NCBI GenBank assembly: GCA_040390725.1
Contig: JAZJXT010000006.1
Coordinates: 64,367-128,366 of the forward strand
Reading direction: 5' to 3'
Source: Patescibacteria group bacterium
Lineage (GTDB): Bacteria; Patescibacteriota; Minisyncoccia; Phycocordibacterales; UBA9973
DNA length: 64,000 bases
The notes under the pieces were generated by a model. It was not told the DNA's origin and did not search any database. It worked only from the letters and a program-made list of their open reading frames with translations. This document shows positions 8,656 through 40,840 of the stretch, one piece after another. The position numbers were made by a program, and so were the translations under genes. Position 1 is the stretch's first letter, and each line of letters starts with the position of its first letter.

Positions 8656-9930
8656 TTAATTCATTTTCATATTAATTTCTTTATTGTTATTATTTATTTG
8701 CGAGAAAATATCCGGATTTTTATCTCCTGAAACTTCAAGCGTTGCCCAAGCGCCTTTATTCATCCTCGCGAGAGCATGATCAACAAGTAAATATTTTCCA
8801 GGAACATTTACAGTAAATTCCACAATTGACGCTCCACCAGGCAAGACTTCTGTAGTCTGCACATTTTTCAAAATTGCCGAACCTGTACCTATCGCAGCTT
8901 CAGGATAAACTTTATCAAAAATTTCTCCTATGATATGAAAAGATGAAATAAGATTAACTCCCCCATTGCCGACATAAATGCGAATTTTGTCGCCGACTTT
9001 TGCTTGCAAACGAGGAACACTTTCTATCTTTCCATTAAAAACCACATAATTCGGATTACCAGCAAGCAATGCATCTGAATCAAAAGGTACAAGGCCTAGT
9101 TTGCCTATTTGCCCCGCAGTATAAAATTCTCCCTGCATTATATAAAATTCCTTATCGACTTTATCTAAAGCAATTTGTGAATCTTTCGGGTCTACCATTA
9201 TGAGTCCGTATTGCCCGTGAGAATTATGCGTGCTGACATTCGGCATTGCGCAATGATAAACATAAAGGCCAGAGTTCAATGCTTTCCATTTAAAAGTTTT
9301 TGTTTCTCCGGGAGCAACATCGGAAAGCATAGCGCCTCCACCTTGACCCGTCACCGCATGCAAATCAATATTATGGTGATGCAAACTCGACTTGTCATTT
9401 TCAAGAGTAATCTCCATTGTATCGCCTTCTCTGACTCGCAACATAGGACCGGGAACTTGTTTATTGTAAGTCCAATAATTCAAATAAATTCCAGGTGCAA
9501 TTTCGGAAATAACTTCTTGCGCTTTTAAATGTATTCTCACGATTCCGTCCGCATCAGGCTTTTGAGCTTCACTCGGCACAGAGTCAGGGCTTGCGGAAAT
9601 ATCAGCAACTTTTTCAAAATTATTTTTATGAATTAAAAAATCCAAAATTTTAGAAAATGGAATTGAAGGAGGAACCCCGCCCGGAGCGTCGGAATGCATA
9701 AATGCCGGCATTGCAAAATCCGGCGCATAAGTTCTGTTTGAAATAAGTCCGGCAAAAAACGCGATAACAAATAAAATTATCGGAACGTAAATACCTTTTT
9801 GTTTTACAACATTCCAAACTGCCGGCTTTTTTATTAAATAAATAAAAATTGACAAAACAGCTAAGGCACCGACTAGCGCCGAAATCATTTCAAAAATAAG
9901 ATATGTGAACATCTCTTTATTATACCTCAA
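8656..9930 (-). CDS. nirK: copper-containing nitrite reductase (NirK)-like, N-terminally membrane anchored
   Basis: HHHNIDLHAVTGQGGG and YVYHCAMPNVSTHNSHGQYGLIMV closely match the NirK type-1/type-2 Cu ligand motifs (HNxDFHAATGALGGG, YVYHCAPPGMVPWHVxSGMNGAIMV); about 110 aa of N-terminal TM segments. Confidence 0.75.
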   Translation of the reverse strand: MRYNKEMFTYLIFEMISALVGALAVLSIFIYLIKKPAVWNVVKQKGIYVPIILFVIAFFAGLISNRTYAPDFAMPAFMHSDAPGGVPPSIPFSKILDFLIHKNNFEKVADISASPDSVPSEAQKPDADGIVRIHLKAQEVISEIAPGIYLNYWTYNKQVPGPMLRVREGDTMEITLENDKSSLHHHNIDLHAVTGQGGGAMLSDVAPGETKTFKWKALNSGLYVYHCAMPNVSTHNSHGQYGLIMVDPKDSQIALDKVDKEFYIMQGEFYTAGQIGKLGLVPFDSDALLAGNPNYVVFNGKIESVPRLQAKVGDKIRIYVGNGGVNLISSFHIIGEIFDKVYPEAAIGTGSAILKNVQTTEVLPGGASIVEFTVNVPGKYLLVDHALARMNKGAWATLEVSGDKNPDIFSQINNNNKEINMKMN

Positions 9931-9940
9931 AAATTAGATT

Positions 9941-11530
9941 TTACTTAACACTATAAGTAAACATCATACCGTCTTCCATATGTTCAGCTATATGGCAATG
10001 CGCCATCCAATTCCCCGCATTTGATGCATCCAGTAAAATATCCACGTACTGCCCTGCCGGCACCAATACTGTATCTTTCCAAGCTAAGTTTTTTTCTTCG
10101 ATTCCATTTTTATCAATTACGAGAAACCTATTGCCGTGAAAATGCATAGGGTGTTGCATCGGGTGCGTAATATTTCCATCGTTTGAAATACGAATTTTTA
10201 CTTTATCATCTTTTTTGAAAACCCAATTTATATCCATATTTTCTTTTTTAGTTTCTTGGTCAATAATTTTCCAAGAAAAAAAATCAGTTCCTGTGTCGGA
10301 CATCATATTCATCATCTTGCTGTCATTGTCCCATTCAATACCATTATCCAAACCCATTACCTCGCCCATAGTTTCATTTTGCATCATTGTACCATCCGGC
10401 ATTTTATGTTGCCCGCTACTCATCATGTTGCCCATCGCCCCCCTCAGCCCTGATGTAAGCTCCAAATATTTATCCGGTGTTTTATTAAAGTAAAGTCGAA
10501 AAGAATCGATGCTGGAAATTGTTTCTGGATGTGAGCGGAGTTTTAGAAAAGTTTCTGAATAAGATTTATCAACATTTTTATCTGACACAATAATTTTCCC
10601 AAGACTATATATATTGTTCGGAGTTTTATTTTGCAATTCATAAGTGCCAGATTTATCAAAAAGAACTTCTACTATAGCGCGCTCTGAAGGGCCGAGAATT
10701 ACAGAGTCCACCCACGTATCATTTTCATAAGCACCATTATCAGCACCAACGAGTTTCATTTTTACTCCATTGATGCCGATATTAAAAGGACGCGCAGTGG
10801 AAGAATTAATAATATAAAAACGAGCGACACTGCCTTTATCAACATTCAAAGAATAATTTTCTTCACCATTCACAAGCATTACATTTCCATATCTACCCAT
10901 CATTATATGATCGGAAGATTTTTTATTAAATGGAACCACGCCATTTTTATCCATCAAAATATCATTCACAAACAAAGGCGCTTCCATATTAACTGAATCC
11001 CAGTAATTTATATTAGCTGGCTCTACAATATATGCTCCATATTGCCCGAGCGGTTGCGCATAATCCTCGCGAAAGTGCGGATGATACCAATATATTCCAA
11101 CATCTGGGAATTTTATTTTATAAACAAAACTTTCACCAGGCTTTATCGCATCTTGGTCAATACCTATCACGCCATCGTATTTATCTTCGAGGCGCACTCC
11201 GTGCGAATGTAGCGCAGTGTCTACATCAGTATTATTTTTAAAATTTATTGTAATCTCCGAACCTTGGGAAACTTTTATCGTCGGCCCAGGTATCATGCCA
11301 TTATATGCGAGCATTTTTGTCTCTTTGCCATTTACTATTTTTTTAACAATCTCCGCAGTCATATCATAGGTATCGCCATTCTTTAGCTCGACTGTCTGAC
11401 TAACCTTTGTGTCCGATAAATCATCCACATCTAGAGAAAAATATTCACTTTTTTTGTGAAATCCAAAATACAATAAAACACTAACAGCAACAATAATCAA
11501 AACTATAATTATTTTAAAATTTTTCTGCAT
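9941..11530 (-). CDS. multicopper oxidase
   Basis: Four Cu-binding motifs: HSHG, WYHPHF, HPMHFHG, HCHIAEHMEDGMM; N-terminal signal/TM. Confidence 0.8.
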   Translation of the reverse strand: MQKNFKIIIVLIIVAVSVLLYFGFHKKSEYFSLDVDDLSDTKVSQTVELKNGDTYDMTAEIVKKIVNGKETKMLAYNGMIPGPTIKVSQGSEITINFKNNTDVDTALHSHGVRLEDKYDGVIGIDQDAIKPGESFVYKIKFPDVGIYWYHPHFREDYAQPLGQYGAYIVEPANINYWDSVNMEAPLFVNDILMDKNGVVPFNKKSSDHIMMGRYGNVMLVNGEENYSLNVDKGSVARFYIINSSTARPFNIGINGVKMKLVGADNGAYENDTWVDSVILGPSERAIVEVLFDKSGTYELQNKTPNNIYSLGKIIVSDKNVDKSYSETFLKLRSHPETISSIDSFRLYFNKTPDKYLELTSGLRGAMGNMMSSGQHKMPDGTMMQNETMGEVMGLDNGIEWDNDSKMMNMMSDTGTDFFSWKIIDQETKKENMDINWVFKKDDKVKIRISNDGNITHPMQHPMHFHGNRFLVIDKNGIEEKNLAWKDTVLVPAGQYVDILLDASNAGNWMAHCHIAEHMEDGMMFTYSVK

Positions 11531-11550
11531 ATTTTTATTATACTACTAAA

Positions 11551-13587
11551 TTATAATTTAGCTCGTCGCAATAATATAGCATTAAATGCCACAATAATTG
11601 TAGAAAAAGACATAAATACCGCAGCGAGGACTGGTTGGAGTATTATTCCTTTCGATGCCAAGACTCCAGCTGCAAGAGGAATAGCCACGACGTTGTACCC
11701 TGTCGCCCAGAAAAGATTTTGAATCATTTTATTGTAGGTCAAACGAGATAAATTAAATATTTTTGGAATATCGCGCAAATCACTTTTTACTAAAATTATT
11801 CCCGCAGATTCTATCGCTACATTTGTACCAGCACCTATCGCTATACCTATGTCCGCTTGGGTAAGGGCCGGAGCGTCATTGATACCATCGCCCACCATAG
11901 CGACTTTCAAGCCACGACTCTGTAAATCTATTATTTTTTTAACTTTATCTTCCGGTAAAACTCGAGCAAAATATTCATCGAGGCCAATCTCATTCGCCAC
12001 GCGTTTTGCTGTCTCCTCACTGTCTCCGGTAATCATCGCGACACGCATGCCAAAAGTTTTTAGTTTTGCAATTACTTCTTTTGATTCCAAACGAACAGCG
12101 TCGGCTACTGCAATTTCTCCAATTTTTTCACCATTTTTCTCAACAACAATTTCATCCCCGCCATGAGTGCCGACAAAAATTATTTCACCATTAACTTTTG
12201 CTTCTGCTCCCCGACCGGGTATTCTTTTAAAATCAGTAGATGGTTTGACTTGAAGCATACGAATTTTTGCTTCTTCAACTATTGCCTTGGCTATCGGATG
12301 CTCAGAATTAACATTCACGGAAGCCGCAAGTATAAGTGCATCATCTGAAATTGCTGACGTAACTTTAAATTTCGCTTCAGTTAGCGTGCCTGTTTTATCA
12401 AATAAAACTATATTTATATTTCGCGCTGATTCGAGAGCTCGACGTTCTTTTACTAGTAAACCATTCCGCGCGGCGAGAGTCGTGGAAATAGATGCAACCA
12501 GTGGTACTGCGAGCCCGAGCGCATGAGGACAAGTGATGACAAGAACTGCGACGAGCCTTTCTGTCGCTGTCACTATTCCCCCACCGACAAAAATCCAAAT
12601 AGAAAATGTTAAAGCTCCTGCCACAATCGCAATGATAGTTAAATAAAAAGCTGCTCTATCGGAAAGCATTTGCAATCGTGATTTTGACGCTTGCGCATTA
12701 GCGACGAGCTTCATCACACCAGCAAGGAAAGTATCCTCACCTATTTTTTCAATTTCCACTTTCAAACTTCCATCACCATTTATAGAACCGGCGATAACAA
12801 ATGCGCCTACAGATTTTTCAACGGGACGGGATTCACCAGTGATCACTGATTCATTTAATTCTGATTGTCCTTCAATAATTTTTCCGTCAGCCGGTATTTT
12901 TGAACCTGGTTTTATTAAAACAATATCGCCGATTTTTAATTCACTTAATGAAATAATTTCGGTTTTATCACCACGAATAACTTCTGCTTGATCCGGCAAA
13001 AGTTTTGCAAGTTCTCGCAATGCACCTTGAGCGCCCTGCACAGACTTCATTTCAATATGATGCCCTAGAAGCATAATGGCTATCAATGATGCGAGCTCAA
13101 ATAAAAGATCATGACCCGTGCCGAATAAAATAGAAAAGAAACTATAAACATATGCCGAGGTTACGGCTATTGCGATAAGGGTCATCATGCCCGGCAGTTT
13201 CGCCCGCAATTCGCGATACGCACTGGTTAAAAAAATTAAACCGCAATAAAAAAATACAATACTACCTAAAATTAAAAGTAAATATTGCGAGCCGTAAAAA
13301 ACAGGTGCCTTTATATGAAAAAGCATATATGCCATTTCAGAATAAAAAAAGATTGGCACAGTCAAAACTAACGCAACCCAAAACTTCGTCAAAAATGACG
13401 AAGTTTTATGACCTGCATGCTTATCAAAATCCTGATTTTTCTCGTGTTCCTTGTGTCCTAAATCATTTTTTTTCTTCATCGGGACAAGATTCATCCCGCA
13501 TTCAGGGCACATCCCCGGCTTGTCAGATACAACCCTCGGATGCATTGGGCACGTGTATATTATGTTGTTTATATTATTTTGCATCAT
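11551..13587 (-). CDS. copA: heavy-metal (copper) translocating P1B-type ATPase, CopB-like with CPH motif
   Basis: DKTGTLT phosphorylation site, TGD, GDGINDAP, transmembrane CPH motif (ITCPHALGLAVP); N-terminal Cys-rich zinc-ribbon-like CPMHPRVVSDKPGMCPECGMNL. Confidence 0.9.
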   Translation of the reverse strand: MMQNNINNIIYTCPMHPRVVSDKPGMCPECGMNLVPMKKKNDLGHKEHEKNQDFDKHAGHKTSSFLTKFWVALVLTVPIFFYSEMAYMLFHIKAPVFYGSQYLLLILGSIVFFYCGLIFLTSAYRELRAKLPGMMTLIAIAVTSAYVYSFFSILFGTGHDLLFELASLIAIMLLGHHIEMKSVQGAQGALRELAKLLPDQAEVIRGDKTEIISLSELKIGDIVLIKPGSKIPADGKIIEGQSELNESVITGESRPVEKSVGAFVIAGSINGDGSLKVEIEKIGEDTFLAGVMKLVANAQASKSRLQMLSDRAAFYLTIIAIVAGALTFSIWIFVGGGIVTATERLVAVLVITCPHALGLAVPLVASISTTLAARNGLLVKERRALESARNINIVLFDKTGTLTEAKFKVTSAISDDALILAASVNVNSEHPIAKAIVEEAKIRMLQVKPSTDFKRIPGRGAEAKVNGEIIFVGTHGGDEIVVEKNGEKIGEIAVADAVRLESKEVIAKLKTFGMRVAMITGDSEETAKRVANEIGLDEYFARVLPEDKVKKIIDLQSRGLKVAMVGDGINDAPALTQADIGIAIGAGTNVAIESAGIILVKSDLRDIPKIFNLSRLTYNKMIQNLFWATGYNVVAIPLAAGVLASKGIILQPVLAAVFMSFSTIIVAFNAILLRRAKL

Positions 13588-13804: not shown

Positions 13805-13867
13805 ATATTTTATTTAAATGTTAATAATTAATAATAGAGAAAAAATTATTTATAAATTATTTATAAA

Positions 13868-14134
13868 TTATTTGCGTTTCAAGCGGTAAACTTTTAATAT
13901 TTCCTCTTTGGCTTTATTTTCTTTACCTTTTTTAATCTGGTCCACAGCGCAACAACTAAGATGATTCTCCATTAAAGCGTCTTCCACTCCAGAAAGAGCT
14001 TGTTTGACTGCCGAAGTTTGAGTAATGACATCTATGCAATATTTGTCATTTTCGACCATTTCCCGAATACCTCGAACTTGCCCCTCAATAATCTTGAGCC
14101 GTCTTTCCAACTTATTTTTAATATCTTTTCTCAT
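13868..14134 (-). CDS. csoR: CsoR/RcnR-family metal-sensing transcriptional repressor
   Basis: LERRLKIIEGQVRGIREMVENDKYCIDVITQTSAVKQALSGVEDALMENHLSCC carries the CsoR C-H-C metal-ligand pattern. The ORF caller extends to 14179, but that extension would cover the operator palindrome, so the start is placed at the Met at 14134. Confidence 0.8.
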   Translation of the reverse strand: MRKDIKNKLERRLKIIEGQVRGIREMVENDKYCIDVITQTSAVKQALSGVEDALMENHLSCCAVDQIKKGKENKAKEEILKVYRLKRK

Positions 14135-14146
14135 AATGGATAGTAT

Positions 14147-14163
14147 ATACCCCCAGGGGGTAT
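14147..14163. promoter_or_regulatory. candidate CsoR operator (perfect GC-rich inverted repeat)
   Basis: ATACCCCCAGGGGGTAT, a 17-bp perfect palindrome 13 bp upstream of the csoR start; resembles known CsoR boxes (TACCC...GGGTA type). Confidence 0.6.
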
Positions 14164-14243
14164 CTGTCAAGTAAAACAATAATGTCTACTATCCTTACAT
14201 ATGTAGACTTAGTAGACAAAAGAAATAATAATGATTAGTAATT

Positions 14244-14671: not shown

Positions 14672-15073
14672 TTACTCGACACGAGCTAAACGCTCTTTTA
14701 TTTTTTCCAAAATATCTTTTAGGCTCCATTGAGACTTTACTAAATAGTATGCGGGCTCGTCTGTAGTAATTTGTTTCATTATTTTTTCTTCATCTGGCGT
14801 CAAATTAGTAAGCAATATAATGGGTACTTTTTTCCCATAATCATTAGATGCACGCAATTTATGCATCATCTCCATCCCATCCATTTTTGGCATTAAAATA
14901 TCCAGCAAAATAAGATCCGGCTTTTTTTCTATAGCCATCGCTAAACCCTGCTCCCCATCCATAGCTTCCAAAGCAATAAAACCTTCGTGCAATAAATTGT
15001 CGCGCAATGCCTCTAGTAGTATATGGTCATCCTCCACTATCAAAATTGTTTTTTGTTTTATATCATCTTCCAT
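14672..15073 (-). CDS. response regulator, receiver domain only
   Basis: 133 aa; LIVEDDHILLEALRDNL, DLILLDILMPKMDGMEM (phospho-acceptor Asp), no output domain. Confidence 0.85.
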   Translation of the reverse strand: MEDDIKQKTILIVEDDHILLEALRDNLLHEGFIALEAMDGEQGLAMAIEKKPDLILLDILMPKMDGMEMMHKLRASNDYGKKVPIILLTNLTPDEEKIMKQITTDEPAYYLVKSQWSLKDILEKIKERLARVE

Positions 15074-15080
15074 AAATTTA

Positions 15081-16763
15081 TTATAACATAGGTATTTTTA
15101 AATAAAATGTCGACCCTTTGCCTTCCTCAGAATCAAATGTTATTTCTGCGCCTATTTTTTTTGAAAGCATAAAAGAAACGTAAAGACCTATACCCATTCC
15201 CTCAGGCTTCACTTTCCCAGCATTTGATGCTCGATAGAATTTATCAAAAACATGTTTTGCTTCTTCTTTTGGTATACCTATACCATTATCTTTTACAAAA
15301 AACACGGCTGCACCTTTTTCTGTTTTAAAATCCAACACAACCTCCTGATCAGCCGGTGAATAAAAAATTGAATTTGATAAAAAATTAGTCAGAATACTTT
15401 TTACCACCTCCAAATCAGTTTTGACTGTAATTTTTTTACCGAAAACTGCATTATTTTTTAAAACAATATCATTTTTCTTAGCTACAGCCTCCACTAACAA
15501 AATAAGATCATCGTAAAAATTTAAAACATCAACCTCTTCTTCTTTGATGTTTGCAGTTGTACTATCTAAGCGAGTCACATTTAAAAGACTAACAACAAGC
15601 TTGATCATTTTTTCATTAGTCAAACTAATATTTTCCACATAAGATTTTTGTTTTTCATTTAGAGGCCCGAGCATGCCGTCTTGCAAAGTTTCAACTAGCC
15701 ATTTAGTACCGGAAAGCGGAGTGCGAAGCTCGTGTGAAGCCAATGATAAAAATTCCATCTGTGACTTTTTTAGCTCTTGTTCATATTTTAGTGATGCTTC
15801 GGAGGAGATCAGCCTTCTTGAAATATAAAAAGTAATAATGAGCAAAAGAGAAAATGCCACAAAAATAACACCGTAAACAACCAATATTGATTTGATAGTA
15901 TCTGCTTGCGCAACGAGAGACATGTTTGCCAAATTCCTTTTTATTTCAGAGATGCTAAAGATAGCCAAAAATACAAAAGGCGAAGCCAGAAGAAAAAAAA
16001 CAATAGCGCGAAGCGTCCCCTTTGGAGTAAATGAATAAAAAGGCTTTGAGGTTTCTGGAATTTTTTCAGAAATATTTTCCACATTTTTACTATTTTCTTT
16101 TTTAACATAAAAAGTAGCATAGAAAAATGGTAAGCCAAAAATACCAGCCGCAACTTTAAAAATAAAACCAAAAAGCATTGCTTGCGCTAATGCCGTGCCA
16201 GAAATAATGCCATAAAAAGCTATCGAAAAGAAAATTATACTATCAATGGCTTGACCTAATATGTTTGAAAAAATATCTCTTTGCCAAAGAGGAAGTTTTT
16301 CAGACTTTTGTGCCAACCGGCCATAAAACCAAATGTTAAACTTTTGAGCAAAAAAGTAAGCCGAGATGCTAGCTAGGAAAATTCTCGGGGCAAAAGTAAA
16401 AAGAGTATTAAGGGCTTGATTAACAGTAGCTGATGCCGACGAACCTATAAACTGCACAGTCAGCTGGCCCATCAATACGAAAAATACCGTAGCACCGAGT
16501 CCAACCCAAAAACTTTTCCTTCCCTCTTTTTCGCCATAATGCTCTATCAAGATATGCGCAGCTAAAAATACCGCAGCATAAAAAATATTACCCACGTTTG
16601 TGGTAATACCAAAAACAGAAACAAGCTTGGCGCCAAATACGCTTATCAAAATCAAGTTAATAGCAATAGAAGCATGGAGCCAACGCTTGCCTAAATTGAA
16701 ACAAATAAAAACGAAGCCAAAAGTAAGCAGGGCGGTAATCACAAAAATAAGCTCATTTATCAT
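15081..16763 (-). CDS. sensor histidine kinase with large polytopic N-terminal membrane domain
   Basis: H-box SLASHELRTPLSG, HATPase N/G boxes (VKDNGIGIP, GMGIGLYV); about 330 aa of N-terminal TM helices. Confidence 0.85.
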   Translation of the reverse strand: MINELIFVITALLTFGFVFICFNLGKRWLHASIAINLILISVFGAKLVSVFGITTNVGNIFYAAVFLAAHILIEHYGEKEGRKSFWVGLGATVFFVLMGQLTVQFIGSSASATVNQALNTLFTFAPRIFLASISAYFFAQKFNIWFYGRLAQKSEKLPLWQRDIFSNILGQAIDSIIFFSIAFYGIISGTALAQAMLFGFIFKVAAGIFGLPFFYATFYVKKENSKNVENISEKIPETSKPFYSFTPKGTLRAIVFFLLASPFVFLAIFSISEIKRNLANMSLVAQADTIKSILVVYGVIFVAFSLLLIITFYISRRLISSEASLKYEQELKKSQMEFLSLASHELRTPLSGTKWLVETLQDGMLGPLNEKQKSYVENISLTNEKMIKLVVSLLNVTRLDSTTANIKEEEVDVLNFYDDLILLVEAVAKKNDIVLKNNAVFGKKITVKTDLEVVKSILTNFLSNSIFYSPADQEVVLDFKTEKGAAVFFVKDNGIGIPKEEAKHVFDKFYRASNAGKVKPEGMGIGLYVSFMLSKKIGAEITFDSEEGKGSTFYLKIPML

Positions 16764-16943
16764 AAACTAATTATAGCAAATTTTAAGAAAAGACTATATT
16801 TTTTAAATTGGGGTCGCTTACTGGTCAAGTTCAGAACTGTTAATTGGTATAGTATATCACAAGACCTTCAGCTTAGTGGAATAAAAAACCTTGGAATATA
16901 CAAAAATAACTTAACCTATAAGTAACGCCCCCCCCCACCACCA

Positions 16944-20988: not shown

Positions 20989-21178
20989 GTGAGTGGGTAG
21001 CAAAAATCCCACTACCAGAGGTGAAGTCTTACGACTTCCATGCAAGTTTCCCTGCACGACGCACGATACGCACCCTGATAATGGGGTTTCTAGTATCGTG
21101 CAATTTTTTCACCATGCCTCTATTTCTAAAGGTTTAGGCTACTGATTAAGTTGTAAATAAAGGATAACATATTTGTAC
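20989..21178. ncRNA. structured GC-richer element 1 plus conserved 30-bp box (candidate ncRNA / replication-origin element)
   Basis: Nested hairpins (gaagtc-ttac-gacttc; gcacgatac-N23-gtatcgtgc followed by a T-run) at 20989-21110, then the box agttgtaaataaaGgataacatatttGtac at 21149-21178; a diverged second copy lies at 21440-21617. Confidence 0.35.
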
Positions 21179-21439: not shown

Positions 21440-21617
21440 AAAAAAACCCTTTCCGAATACGAAGAAAGAGTTTACGACTATATATCTTTCCCCGTATGGG
21501 GCTGAATTTAGCACCGTTGCCTTTTGGCTGGTTGCTGGTAGGTCATAGAGTCAGTACTCTCGCTACACTCTCGATAATTCCCTATTTAGTTGTAAATAAA
21601 TGATAACATATTTACAA
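21440..21617. ncRNA. structured element 2 plus conserved 30-bp box (second copy)
   Basis: Shares ttacgact and cc(c)gtatgggg hairpin features with element 1; box agttgtaaataaaTgataacatatttAcaa at 21588-21617, 439 bp from the first box. Confidence 0.3.
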
Positions 21618-40244: not shown

Positions 40245-40688
40245 CTAAATAAAATATGGATTTAAATGCCTGGCTAGGAATTCATTGCCTAGCCAGTGCC
40301 AAGCGAGTAGAAAATTTTTACAATTCTCTTCTTCGTCTTCTTGTACCCAAAGACAGGGTACGTAAAGGTTGCCATCGTCATGCATGGATACTGACTTCCA
40401 TGCATATAAAATTTTGTCTCCAAAGAGCTGTAGGAATATATCAGTTCCCTTTTCTTTGATAGCCAAAAGATCTTGTAAGTTTAAACATTTTTTTAGAGCA
40501 TCTATTTTTTTTAACTCTTTAAAAATTGTTTTTCCTTTTACGATCCTGTTTTTATTGTACCAAAAGCCCAGCAAAGACAAATCGTATGTTTCTGGCCCTG
40601 AACATTCCAGCTCTGGGTGTCTAAGCTCTCTTATAAAAAATATATAATCAGGCTTAGTGGAACGGTTAATACTTACGATAAAATTCAT
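40245..40688 (-). CDS. hypothetical protein
   Basis: 147-aa ORF; no recognisable family. Confidence 0.35.
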   Translation of the reverse strand: MNFIVSINRSTKPDYIFFIRELRHPELECSGPETYDLSLLGFWYNKNRIVKGKTIFKELKKIDALKKCLNLQDLLAIKEKGTDIFLQLFGDKILYAWKSVSMHDDGNLYVPCLWVQEDEEENCKNFLLAWHWLGNEFLARHLNPYFI

Positions 40689-40840
40689 AACTTTCGAGTT
40701 AAACTAGACCGAAATTGGTCATAGCTAGAAAATACCCTGTAAGCAAAAGAGGATCTTTTAGCTATAACCAAAATTTTGCAAGTTAAAAATCAAAGGACAA
40801 AAGGGTGCTTCTATAAAAAGACTAATATATATATAGCCGC

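Follow-up and report, generated by a model that had tools for sequence, protein, structure and literature searches.

Where does the csoR gene of this Patescibacteria group bacterium begin, and is the DNA in front of its conserved methionine coding sequence or a binding site for the repressor that the gene encodes? In the window (the whole stretch of 64,000 nucleotides that was analysed), the mechanical open reading frame on the minus strand, 13868-14179, opens with a TTG codon and specifies 103 residues; its translation begins MFYLTDTPWGY. Within it, at 14147-14163, is a 17-bp perfect inverted repeat, which in this frame constitutes codons 6-11 (D-T-P-W-G-Y). The earlier note had pointed out both the repeat and its position inside the called gene, and on both counts it is confirmed; it had further proposed that the repeat is a CsoR operator and that the start was mis-called, the true one being the Met at 14134. 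We consider it highly probable that the palindrome is an operator lodged in the csoR promoter, between its -35 and -10 boxes, that the product is a Cu(I)-sensing CsoR translated from ATG 14134 on a leaderless mRNA, and that the 15 codons back to the TTG are promoter DNA. The features discussed are collected in Table 1.

Table 1. Features of the csoR region and the genes downstream of it, ordered by position in the window
Feature	Position	Strand	Basis or remark
Gene for NirK-like two-domain copper oxidoreductase	8656..9915	-	TIGR02376 at 291.3 bits, just under the cutoff of 296.3
Gene for multicopper oxidase, adjacent and co-directional	9941..11530	-	three Cu-oxidase domains
copA, copper-exporting P1B-type ATPase	11551..13587	-	TIGR01511 at 575 bits (cutoff 397); HMBD domain
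Small ORF lying between copA and csoR, hydrophobic product of 76 aa	13574..13804	-	shares 14 nt with the start of copA
csoR coding sequence, 88 aa (MRKDIKNK...), predicted copper-sensing repressor of the CsoR/RcnR family	13868..14134	-	PF02583; solved relatives
Predicted transcription start, at the A of the ATG or 1 nt before it	14134..14135	-	7-nt gap from the -10 box
Spurious, non-coding N-terminal extension from TTG 14179	14135..14179	-	TTG upstream of the -35 box; stops in relatives
-10 hexamer TATACT, sharing the palindrome's last base	14142..14147	-	promoter scan; commonest -10 box in relatives
Predicted type-2 CsoR operator, ATACCCCC-T-GGGGGTAT	14147..14163 (extended dyad 14145-14165)	both	uniqueness, consensus match, conservation
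-35 hexamer TTGACA of the csoR promoter	14165..14170	-	promoter scan; translates as Leu-Thr in the false extension (codons 4-5)
AT-rich hairpin UGUCUACUA...UAGUAGACA with a U-rich stretch after it, weak terminator candidate	14183..14218	-	lies past the cupredoxin stop and ahead of the csoR -35 box

The csoR product and its start

The Pfam model PF02583 (Trns_repr_metal) recognises the csoR product with 86.3 bits against a cutoff of 22.8, which places it in the family. Positions 2-75 of the 78 in the model align from residue 21 of the 103-residue ORF, equivalent to residue 6 of the 88-residue form; that is, the domain sets in 5 residues past Met 14134. This Met is nearly invariant among the aligned homologues, and most of the best 120 database matches (Patescibacteria wherever the source names the organism) have annotated lengths of 87-89 aa and begin with this same Met. 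The onset of the domain, the conserved Met and, as described below, an operator and promoter conserved upstream of it all bear out the proposal of a mis-called start. A protein of about 89 residues had been foreseen; the short form is supported, its exact length being 88 aa.

The closest solved structures are copper CsoRs, those of Geobacillus thermodenitrificans (4m1p), Streptomyces lividans (4adz) and Mycobacterium tuberculosis (2hh7). Cys33, His58 and Cys62 (88-aa numbering) align with the Cu(I) ligands of the solved proteins (4m1p, 4adz) and reproduce the x-C-H-C fingerprint of Cu(I) sensors (YC33ID and H58-L-S-C-C62). All three are invariant in an alignment of 20 sequences and invariant or at least 90% conserved in one of 36. 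An N-terminal His of the RcnR or InrS type is absent from the csoR product.

The residues expected to contact DNA give a mixed picture. Gln39 (ITQ39TSA) aligns with the DNA-contact Gln of the CsoR structures. The operator-binding residues of S. lividans CsoR are the RLXR motif on helix 1 and a Gln (R54, R57 and Q81), and the R57A mutant, altered in the second Arg of the motif, gave no binding profile in calorimetry (PMC3902906). Here the motif reads R-L-K-I, with Ile in place of the second Arg and an extra Arg in front (RRLKII), a form that is conserved across the clade. The presence of RLKI in place of RLXR counts against the predicted binding of the operator by this CsoR.

A palindrome in the promoter spacer

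The palindrome reads ATACCCCCAGGGGGTAT on the plus strand and ATACCCCCTGGGGGTAT on the minus strand, the sense of the gene, and has the form ATACCCCC(A/T)GGGGGTAT, two 8-nt arms around 1 central base. With up to 3 mismatches allowed, the 64-kb window contains 1 copy, where dinucleotide shuffles lead one to expect 0.05. The dyad can be extended to 21 bp (14145-14165) with 1 mismatch. The 21-mer carrying the CsoR-type dyad is AGATACCCCCTGGGGGTATAT.

The type-2 operators of S. lividans CsoR (csoR, copZA1 and copZA2) are G-tract pseudopalindromes of the form TAC-X9-GTA, with the 21-nt consensus ATATACCCCTNAGGGGTATAT (PMC3902906). The sequence TAC-CCCCTGGGG-GTA at 14148-14162 is likewise a TAC-N9-GTA inverted repeat with C/G tracts, as the definition of type 2 has it, and the palindrome matches 12 of the 12 most conserved positions (3-8 and 14-19) of the streptomycete consensus (PMC3902906). 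It also has the location of a type-2 site, being in the -35/-10 spacer directly upstream of csoR, with copA downstream. We conclude from its form, its match to the consensus and its location that the palindrome is a canonical type-2 CsoR operator, to which binding is predicted, and the identity first proposed for it is thus supported. No credible second CsoR box (for the oxidases, the cupredoxin or the two-component genes) was found in the 64-kb window, either in the exact and 3-mismatch search or in a looser scan with the pattern TACCC-N3-8-GGGTA. The sole other match to the looser pattern, TACCCAAAGACAGGGTA at 40344-40360, is without a G tract and lies within the span of ORF 40248-40691 on the minus strand; we judged it to be a chance occurrence.

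On the minus strand the order of elements is TTGACA, a 17-nt spacer, TATACT, 7 nt and the ATG at 14134. The TTGACA/TATACT pair is the top sigma-70-like site that the promoter scan returned between 8000 and 17500 (11 of 12 matches, 17-nt spacer), and the spacer is essentially the palindrome. The operator had been placed 13 bp upstream of the Met; it does lie upstream, at a distance of 12 nt (14135-14146) from the A of the ATG, and it is itself the promoter spacer. The earlier note mentioned neither this location, nor the -35 box in frame as codons 4-5, nor the leaderless layout.

The 7 nt between the -10 box and ATG 14134 lead us to predict a leaderless csoR mRNA. The arrangement is that of leaderless genes in general, in which the -10 hexamer lies about 6-8 nt before the AUG and there is no room for a ribosome-binding site. 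The gap is 7 nt here as against a mode of 6 nt in the relatives, and a leader of 1 nt is possible. The rest of the window has the same character. Shine-Dalgarno-like motifs accompany 5 of its 45 long ORFs, which is the chance level, and there is none that could serve a leadered csoR mRNA. Of 51 genes of the window, 12 have a -10-like hexamer whose end lies exactly 6 nt ahead of the first ATG, compared to 0.3% of 1010 control ATGs, and we take a TATAAT-type box 6 nt before the ATG to be the transcription-start signature of this genome, as judged by its sequence. The same spacing is known from GeneMarkS-2 group C, the genomes with frequent leaderless transcription, where, in operon-first genes, 6-8 nt separate the Pribnow box from the start codon; gene finders misplace starts in these genomes, and the group is reported mainly for Actinobacteria and Deinococcus-Thermus (PMC6028130). 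In the papers searched, those on group C included, we found nothing specific on CsoR or leaderless transcription in Patescibacteria.

Conservation of the site and the non-coding extension

Two sets of related loci were compared. The genome set comprises the best 80 of 581 relatives in species-representative genomes, ranked with the 103-aa query, a ranking that favours loci with an open, palindrome-containing upstream frame; alignment of the 70 nt upstream of the conserved ATG gave 69 usable loci. The metagenome set comprises the best 80 of 393 relatives, on contigs retrieved with an alignment of the 88 aa only, and yields 68 distinct upstream regions; it is free of the upstream-DNA bias and leads to the same conclusions as the genome set. 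Counts of ATG spacing were restricted to ATGs downstream of the -10 box.

An ATG stands at the homologous position in all 70 genome-set loci in which the csoR core was found (among the best 80). The TACCC...GGGTA palindrome is present in 65 of 69 genome loci and 62 of 68 metagenome loci (best 80 each); it takes the TAC-N9-GTA form in 51 of the 65 (N10 in the other 14) and in 59 of the 62 (the rest N10). In the genome set each column of TACCCC and GGGGTA has an information content of 2.0 bits, and the centre and the flanks are free. Wherever the palindrome occurs in that set it is inside the -35/-10 pair (65 of 65), and a TTGACA-like hexamer (at least 5 of 6 positions) is found 0-5 nt ahead of its TAC in 60 of 65. 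Promoter scores of at least 9 out of 12 were obtained for 60 of 65 genome loci and 56 of 62 metagenome loci, TATACT being the commonest -10 box (24 of 65 genome loci). The ATG follows the -10 box at 6-9 nt in 54 of 65 genome loci and 54 of 62 metagenome loci, 6 nt being the mode. In a minority of the relatives the two lie 15-40 nt apart or the palindrome is missing.

These counts bear on the nature of the transcript. One could accept ATG 14134 as the true start and suppose that the mRNA is leadered, coming from an upstream promoter or from cupredoxin read-through, in which case the match to TTGACA/TATACT would be a coincidence and CsoR a roadblock. Between the cupredoxin gene and csoR the scan for intrinsic terminators yielded none; the hairpin at 14183-14218 has a fold energy of -11.7 kcal/mol (z = -1.2 relative to shuffles) and is not significant alone. 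The absence of a strong upstream terminator favours such a leader, as do the few relatives with a long stretch between the -10 box and the ATG. We nevertheless regard it as quite unlikely, since the -35/-10 pair is conserved together with the operator at the frequencies given above whatever genes lie upstream, no Shine-Dalgarno motif is available, and the spacing from the -10 box to the ATG is the same as genome-wide. A leadered mRNA from an upstream promoter is possible as an additional transcript, and because there is no convincing terminator between the two genes, cupredoxin read-through transcripts that carry TTG 14179 are possible too.

The palindrome might also function as RNA, as a terminator of the cupredoxin gene or as an attenuator, instead of being a DNA site for a protein. 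Its GC-rich arms could form a 7-bp stem with a 3-nt loop, and the cupredoxin stop lies 80 nt ahead of it. Against this, the palindrome was not picked out by the terminator scan and lacks a U run after it. It stays with csoR even though a cupredoxin gene is upstream of csoR in 0 of 80 related loci, and its position relative to the -35 and -10 hexamers is fixed. The arms, moreover, are invariant, not covarying, and this includes the TAC/GTA bases that are known to contact CsoR (PMC3902906). An RNA hairpin is therefore very unlikely in our judgement, and we return to the operator in the spacer.

What, then, of the residues that the mechanical ORF adds to CsoR? The extension is translated promoter: the -35 box gives Leu-Thr, the operator Asp-Thr-Pro-Trp-Gly-Tyr and the -10 box onward Ile-Leu, the Tyr codon of the translated operator running into the -10 box. 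A transcript from the TTGACA/TATACT promoter cannot contain TTG 14179, because this codon sits upstream of the -35 box. Nevertheless, the extension can look like protein. More than 91 aa are annotated for 44 of the best 120 homologues, and in 22 of 22 aligned long homologues the block L-T-[D/Y/N]-T-P-x-G-Y-I-[I/L] stands at a fixed distance from the conserved Met, as it would if TTG 14179 or a nearby start were real, the palindrome were coding sequence and these CsoRs carried a conserved L-T-x-T-P-x-G-Y extension.

Several observations speak against that reading. The variable x of T-P-x-G-Y corresponds to the centre of the palindrome, and L-T is a translation of TTGACA; upstream of the block, the extensions of the long homologues diverge in sequence and in length. 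Some database calls start at the TTG of TTGACA itself, giving sequences that open with MTDTP or LTDTP. The palindrome falls in all 3 frames relative to the ATG (31, 25 and 9 loci in the genome set, 30, 18 and 14 in the metagenome set), which produces the pseudo-motifs TPxGY, YPxGV and IPxGGI. An in-frame stop separates the -35 box from the ATG in 39 of 65 genome loci and 47 of 62 metagenome loci (60% in the biased set and 76% in the unbiased one), and in related loci the centre of the palindrome is often itself a TAG stop. As the frames shift and stops interrupt them, the conservation is at the level of DNA, that of promoter and operator, and not of protein. Neither the Pfam domain nor the solved CsoR structures need the added residues, and the TTG is upstream of the -35 box. 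We give a coding extension almost no credence and conclude from these comparisons that the "conserved" L-T-x-T-P-x-G-Y stretch is an artefact that arises when the conserved DNA of promoter and operator is translated. The earlier note had allowed that homologues with conserved N-terminal extensions over this region would tell against its start; such extensions do exist (the 44 of 120 above), yet they are translated promoter and operator and so do not refute it.

The regulated unit and its meaning

A same-strand copA homologue lies downstream of csoR in 71 of 80 genome loci (best 80), and in most relatives the distance from the csoR stop to the copA start is a few nucleotides to a few tens of nucleotides, often 2-13 nt. 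This gene order identifies csoR-copA as a conserved unit, and copA is likely to be the main target of the predicted operator. The 76-aa ORF between the two is probably co-transcribed with them; it has no Pfam or NCBIfam match. It was considered as a conserved partner of csoR and rejected, with no tblastn match in the 80 loci; some relatives have an unrelated gene of about 187 or about 120 aa at this place. We identified no gene for a CopZ chaperone in the csoR-copA cluster.

The earlier note had described an autoregulatory arrangement in which the operator controls csoR, the small gene after it, the ATPase and the oxidases. The part concerning csoR and copA holds, with the site at the csoR promoter and copA linked to it across the related loci; control of the oxidases is unsupported. 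The multicopper oxidase gene and the NirK-like gene each have their own TATAAT ending 6 nt before the ATG, the window offers no second CsoR box, a multicopper oxidase homologue is near csoR in only 2 of 80 genome loci, and the oxidase pair is adjacent in at most 2 of 80. Read-through from copA into the oxidases is possible because the scan found no terminator after copA. At the NirK-like gene, GGTATAAT plus 6 nt precedes the ATG at 9915, and from this layout the gene probably starts there and not at TTG 9930.

The neighbourhood is also relevant to the identity of the effector. The CsoR/RcnR family is functionally diverse, and other members sense Ni/Co, persulfide or formaldehyde; start and operator could be as we describe and the signal still be one of these. 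The NCBIfam equivalogs, the only matches of their kind, all fall far below their cutoffs (RicR, 76.6 against 175; RcnR, 35.3 against 138; FrmR, 26.4 against 133), and the csoR product is not a member of the RicR, RcnR or FrmR orthologue groups. The diversity of the family and these low scores leave some room for a different effector. On the other side, the x-C-H-C pattern is present and nearly invariant in the clade, the N-terminal His of RcnR and InrS is missing, the best solved relatives are copper CsoRs, a copper P1B-type ATPase is linked to the gene in the loci counted above, and cuproprotein genes surround csoR here. We think an effector other than Cu(I) unlikely.

From what is known of the family, we infer CsoR binding, a response to copper and the exact 5' end of the transcript, and suggest the following mechanism. 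When copper is lacking, apo-CsoR tetramers would occupy the TAC-N9-GTA dyad in the spacer and block RNA polymerase. Binding of Cu(I) at Cys33, His58 and Cys62 would release the repressor, whereupon csoR, the small ORF and copA would be transcribed from the A of ATG 14134 or from 1 nt before it. The leaderless csoR-(small ORF)-copA mRNA would be translated from its 5'-terminal AUG, and CopA would export copper. In S. lividans, two CsoR tetramers bind per operator (PMC3902906).

Comparison with the S. lividans system shows the same TAC/GTA ends, C/G tracts and N9 spacing, conserved Cys-His-Cys ligands and DNA-contact Gln, and a repressor that controls its own gene and a copA-type ATPase, as is predicted here. 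The differences are the phylum, Patescibacteria; the length of the protein, 88 aa compared to the 136-residue solved chain (4adz); the RLKI sequence compared to RLXR; and the lack of a CopZ gene in the cluster. In the csoR-cueA divergon of Bradyrhizobium liaoningense, 5'-RACE placed the transcription start on the A of the csoR ATG, and the CsoR box TATACCCCTACCGGGTATA overlaps the promoter (PMC5057107). The leaderless csoR mRNA predicted here, with a CsoR box at the promoter, resembles that arrangement; in B. liaoningense, however, the genes are divergent and the box lies over shared -10 elements, whereas here csoR and copA run in the same direction and the box takes up the -35/-10 spacer. The nreAXY promoter of Mesorhizobium, regulated by the CsoR/RcnR family member NreA, carries a dyad operator between its -35 and -10 boxes and gives rise to a leaderless transcript with no Shine-Dalgarno motif (PMC12724321). 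With it the present locus shares the spacer dyad, a repressor gene that is first in its operon and, by prediction, the leaderless layout. NreA is nickel-responsive and belongs to another clade, with a 19-bp operator that we liken to ours by layout and not by sequence, and with different efflux genes. An operator in the spacer together with a leaderless transcript has thus already been documented for CsoR-family genes in rhizobia and is not a new mechanism; the mechanism itself is known from Actinobacteria and rhizobia.

For annotation, the analysis corrects the csoR start in the window and probably that of the NirK-like gene as well. The error is a recurring one: gene callers, including those behind the GenBank annotations of metagenome-assembled genomes, frequently extend csoR of Patescibacteria into its own promoter. 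Conservation of the operator DNA makes these false extensions line up as if they shared a protein motif (TPxGY, YPxGV or IPxGGI), which could be mistaken for a sign of a real N-terminal domain. For the organism, csoR adds to the evidence that this genome starts most of its transcription units directly at the start codon, and the copper-responsive, leaderless csoR-copA unit is a confident, testable regulatory prediction for an uncultivated lineage. Whether the combination of TTGACA, CsoR box, -10 box and an ATG 6-8 nt further on is a phylum-wide copper-inducible leaderless promoter of Patescibacteria, placed in genomes that have all but given up Shine-Dalgarno initiation, is a question on which we find ourselves evenly divided. 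If it is, the pair of CsoR and its box would provide the Candidate Phyla Radiation (CPR) with its first well-defined case of a transcription factor with its operator, would supply a ready inducible expression switch for bacteria that are hard to manipulate, and would serve as a marker with which to correct systematic start-codon errors in CPR annotations.

CsoR helix 1 and the upstream region of csoR

The helix-1 DNA-binding motif of CsoR (residues 11-16; gene 13868-14134, minus strand) reads RRLKII throughout the clade, whereas the CsoRs that have been studied carry RLXR; Ile replaces the second Arg. In S. lividans CsoR, mutation of this second Arg (R57A) gave no binding profile by calorimetry (PMC3902906).

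The sole other TACCC-N-GGGTA match in the window, TACCCAAAGACAGGGTA (40344-40360), was considered as a second CsoR box; it is probably a chance match, because the G tract is missing and a long ORF (40248-40691, minus strand) spans the site. Among the close csoR relatives, a minority of loci (L061, L067, L073, L095, L100, L125, L139, and L150) have no recognisable palindrome (the predicted operator) or promoter within 70 nt upstream of the gene, and in L061, L100, and L139, a CTAAC-rich repeat (ctcctaacctctaac) is found there instead. Judged from these upstream sequences, the regulation of csoR in such loci must be different. Other loci (L014, L024, L039, L062, L072, and L075) combine a Patescibacteria-type csoR promoter and gene with foreign record titles, including 'uncultured Gammaproteobacteria', 'Woesearchaeota archaeon', and 'Bacteroidales bacterium'; errors in MAG binning or labelling probably account for these contigs.

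Between csoR and copA

An AT-rich tandem repeat, two copies of TAATTTATAAA followed by TAATTTTT, begins at the csoR stop codon and lies within the 63-nt gap 5' of the small ORF that precedes copA, the copper ATPase gene. Some relatives have an extra gene between csoR and copA, and this is of two kinds (see the table). The longer product resembles, we presume, DUF305, and the shorter may be cupredoxin-like. These inserted genes suggest that accessory copper proteins, specific to certain lineages, are encoded in the same operon as csoR and copA.

Features of the window and of related loci
Feature	Position	Strand	Details
LOOT RNA	21023-21140	-	Rfam, 77 bits, above gathering score
SAM riboswitch	21479-21580	-	Rfam, 57 bits, above gathering score
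Histidine kinase	15081-16763	-	N-terminal Vut_1 (PF02592) fused to HisKA and HATPase_c
Response-regulator receiver gene	14672-15073		
AT-rich tandem repeat	13838-13870	-	
TATAAT-like box 6 nt before ATG (example regions)	11531-11550; 9916-9935; 15074-15095; 16764-16785		
Membrane-anchored protein, about 187 aa	csoR-copA gap		HHRGAMLLAE; L002, L011, L016, L020, L025, L041, L052, L069, L072
Protein, about 120 aa	csoR-copA gap		L034, L046, L063, L065, L067, L074

RNA elements and a sensor kinase

The LOOT RNA and the SAM riboswitch lie near each other on one strand. The fusion of Vut_1, a putative vitamin uptake transporter domain, to HisKA and HATPase_c gives the histidine kinase an unusual sensor architecture; its gene adjoins that of a lone response-regulator receiver.

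Start signals

The NirK-like gene (a two-domain copper oxidoreductase) was called as an ORF with a TTG start (8656-9930, minus strand). The ATG at 9915 on this strand is preceded by GGTATAAT and 6 nt, which would place the TTG in promoter DNA, and the start was probably mis-called in the same manner as that of csoR. Across the whole window, Shine-Dalgarno sites occur in just 5 of 45 long ORFs and seem to be missing from the genome. Of 51 genes, 12 have a TATAAT-like box exactly 6 nt 5' of their ATG, compared to 0.3% of control ATGs. Taken together, these start-site sequences imply that leaderless mRNAs would be widespread in this Patescibacterium.
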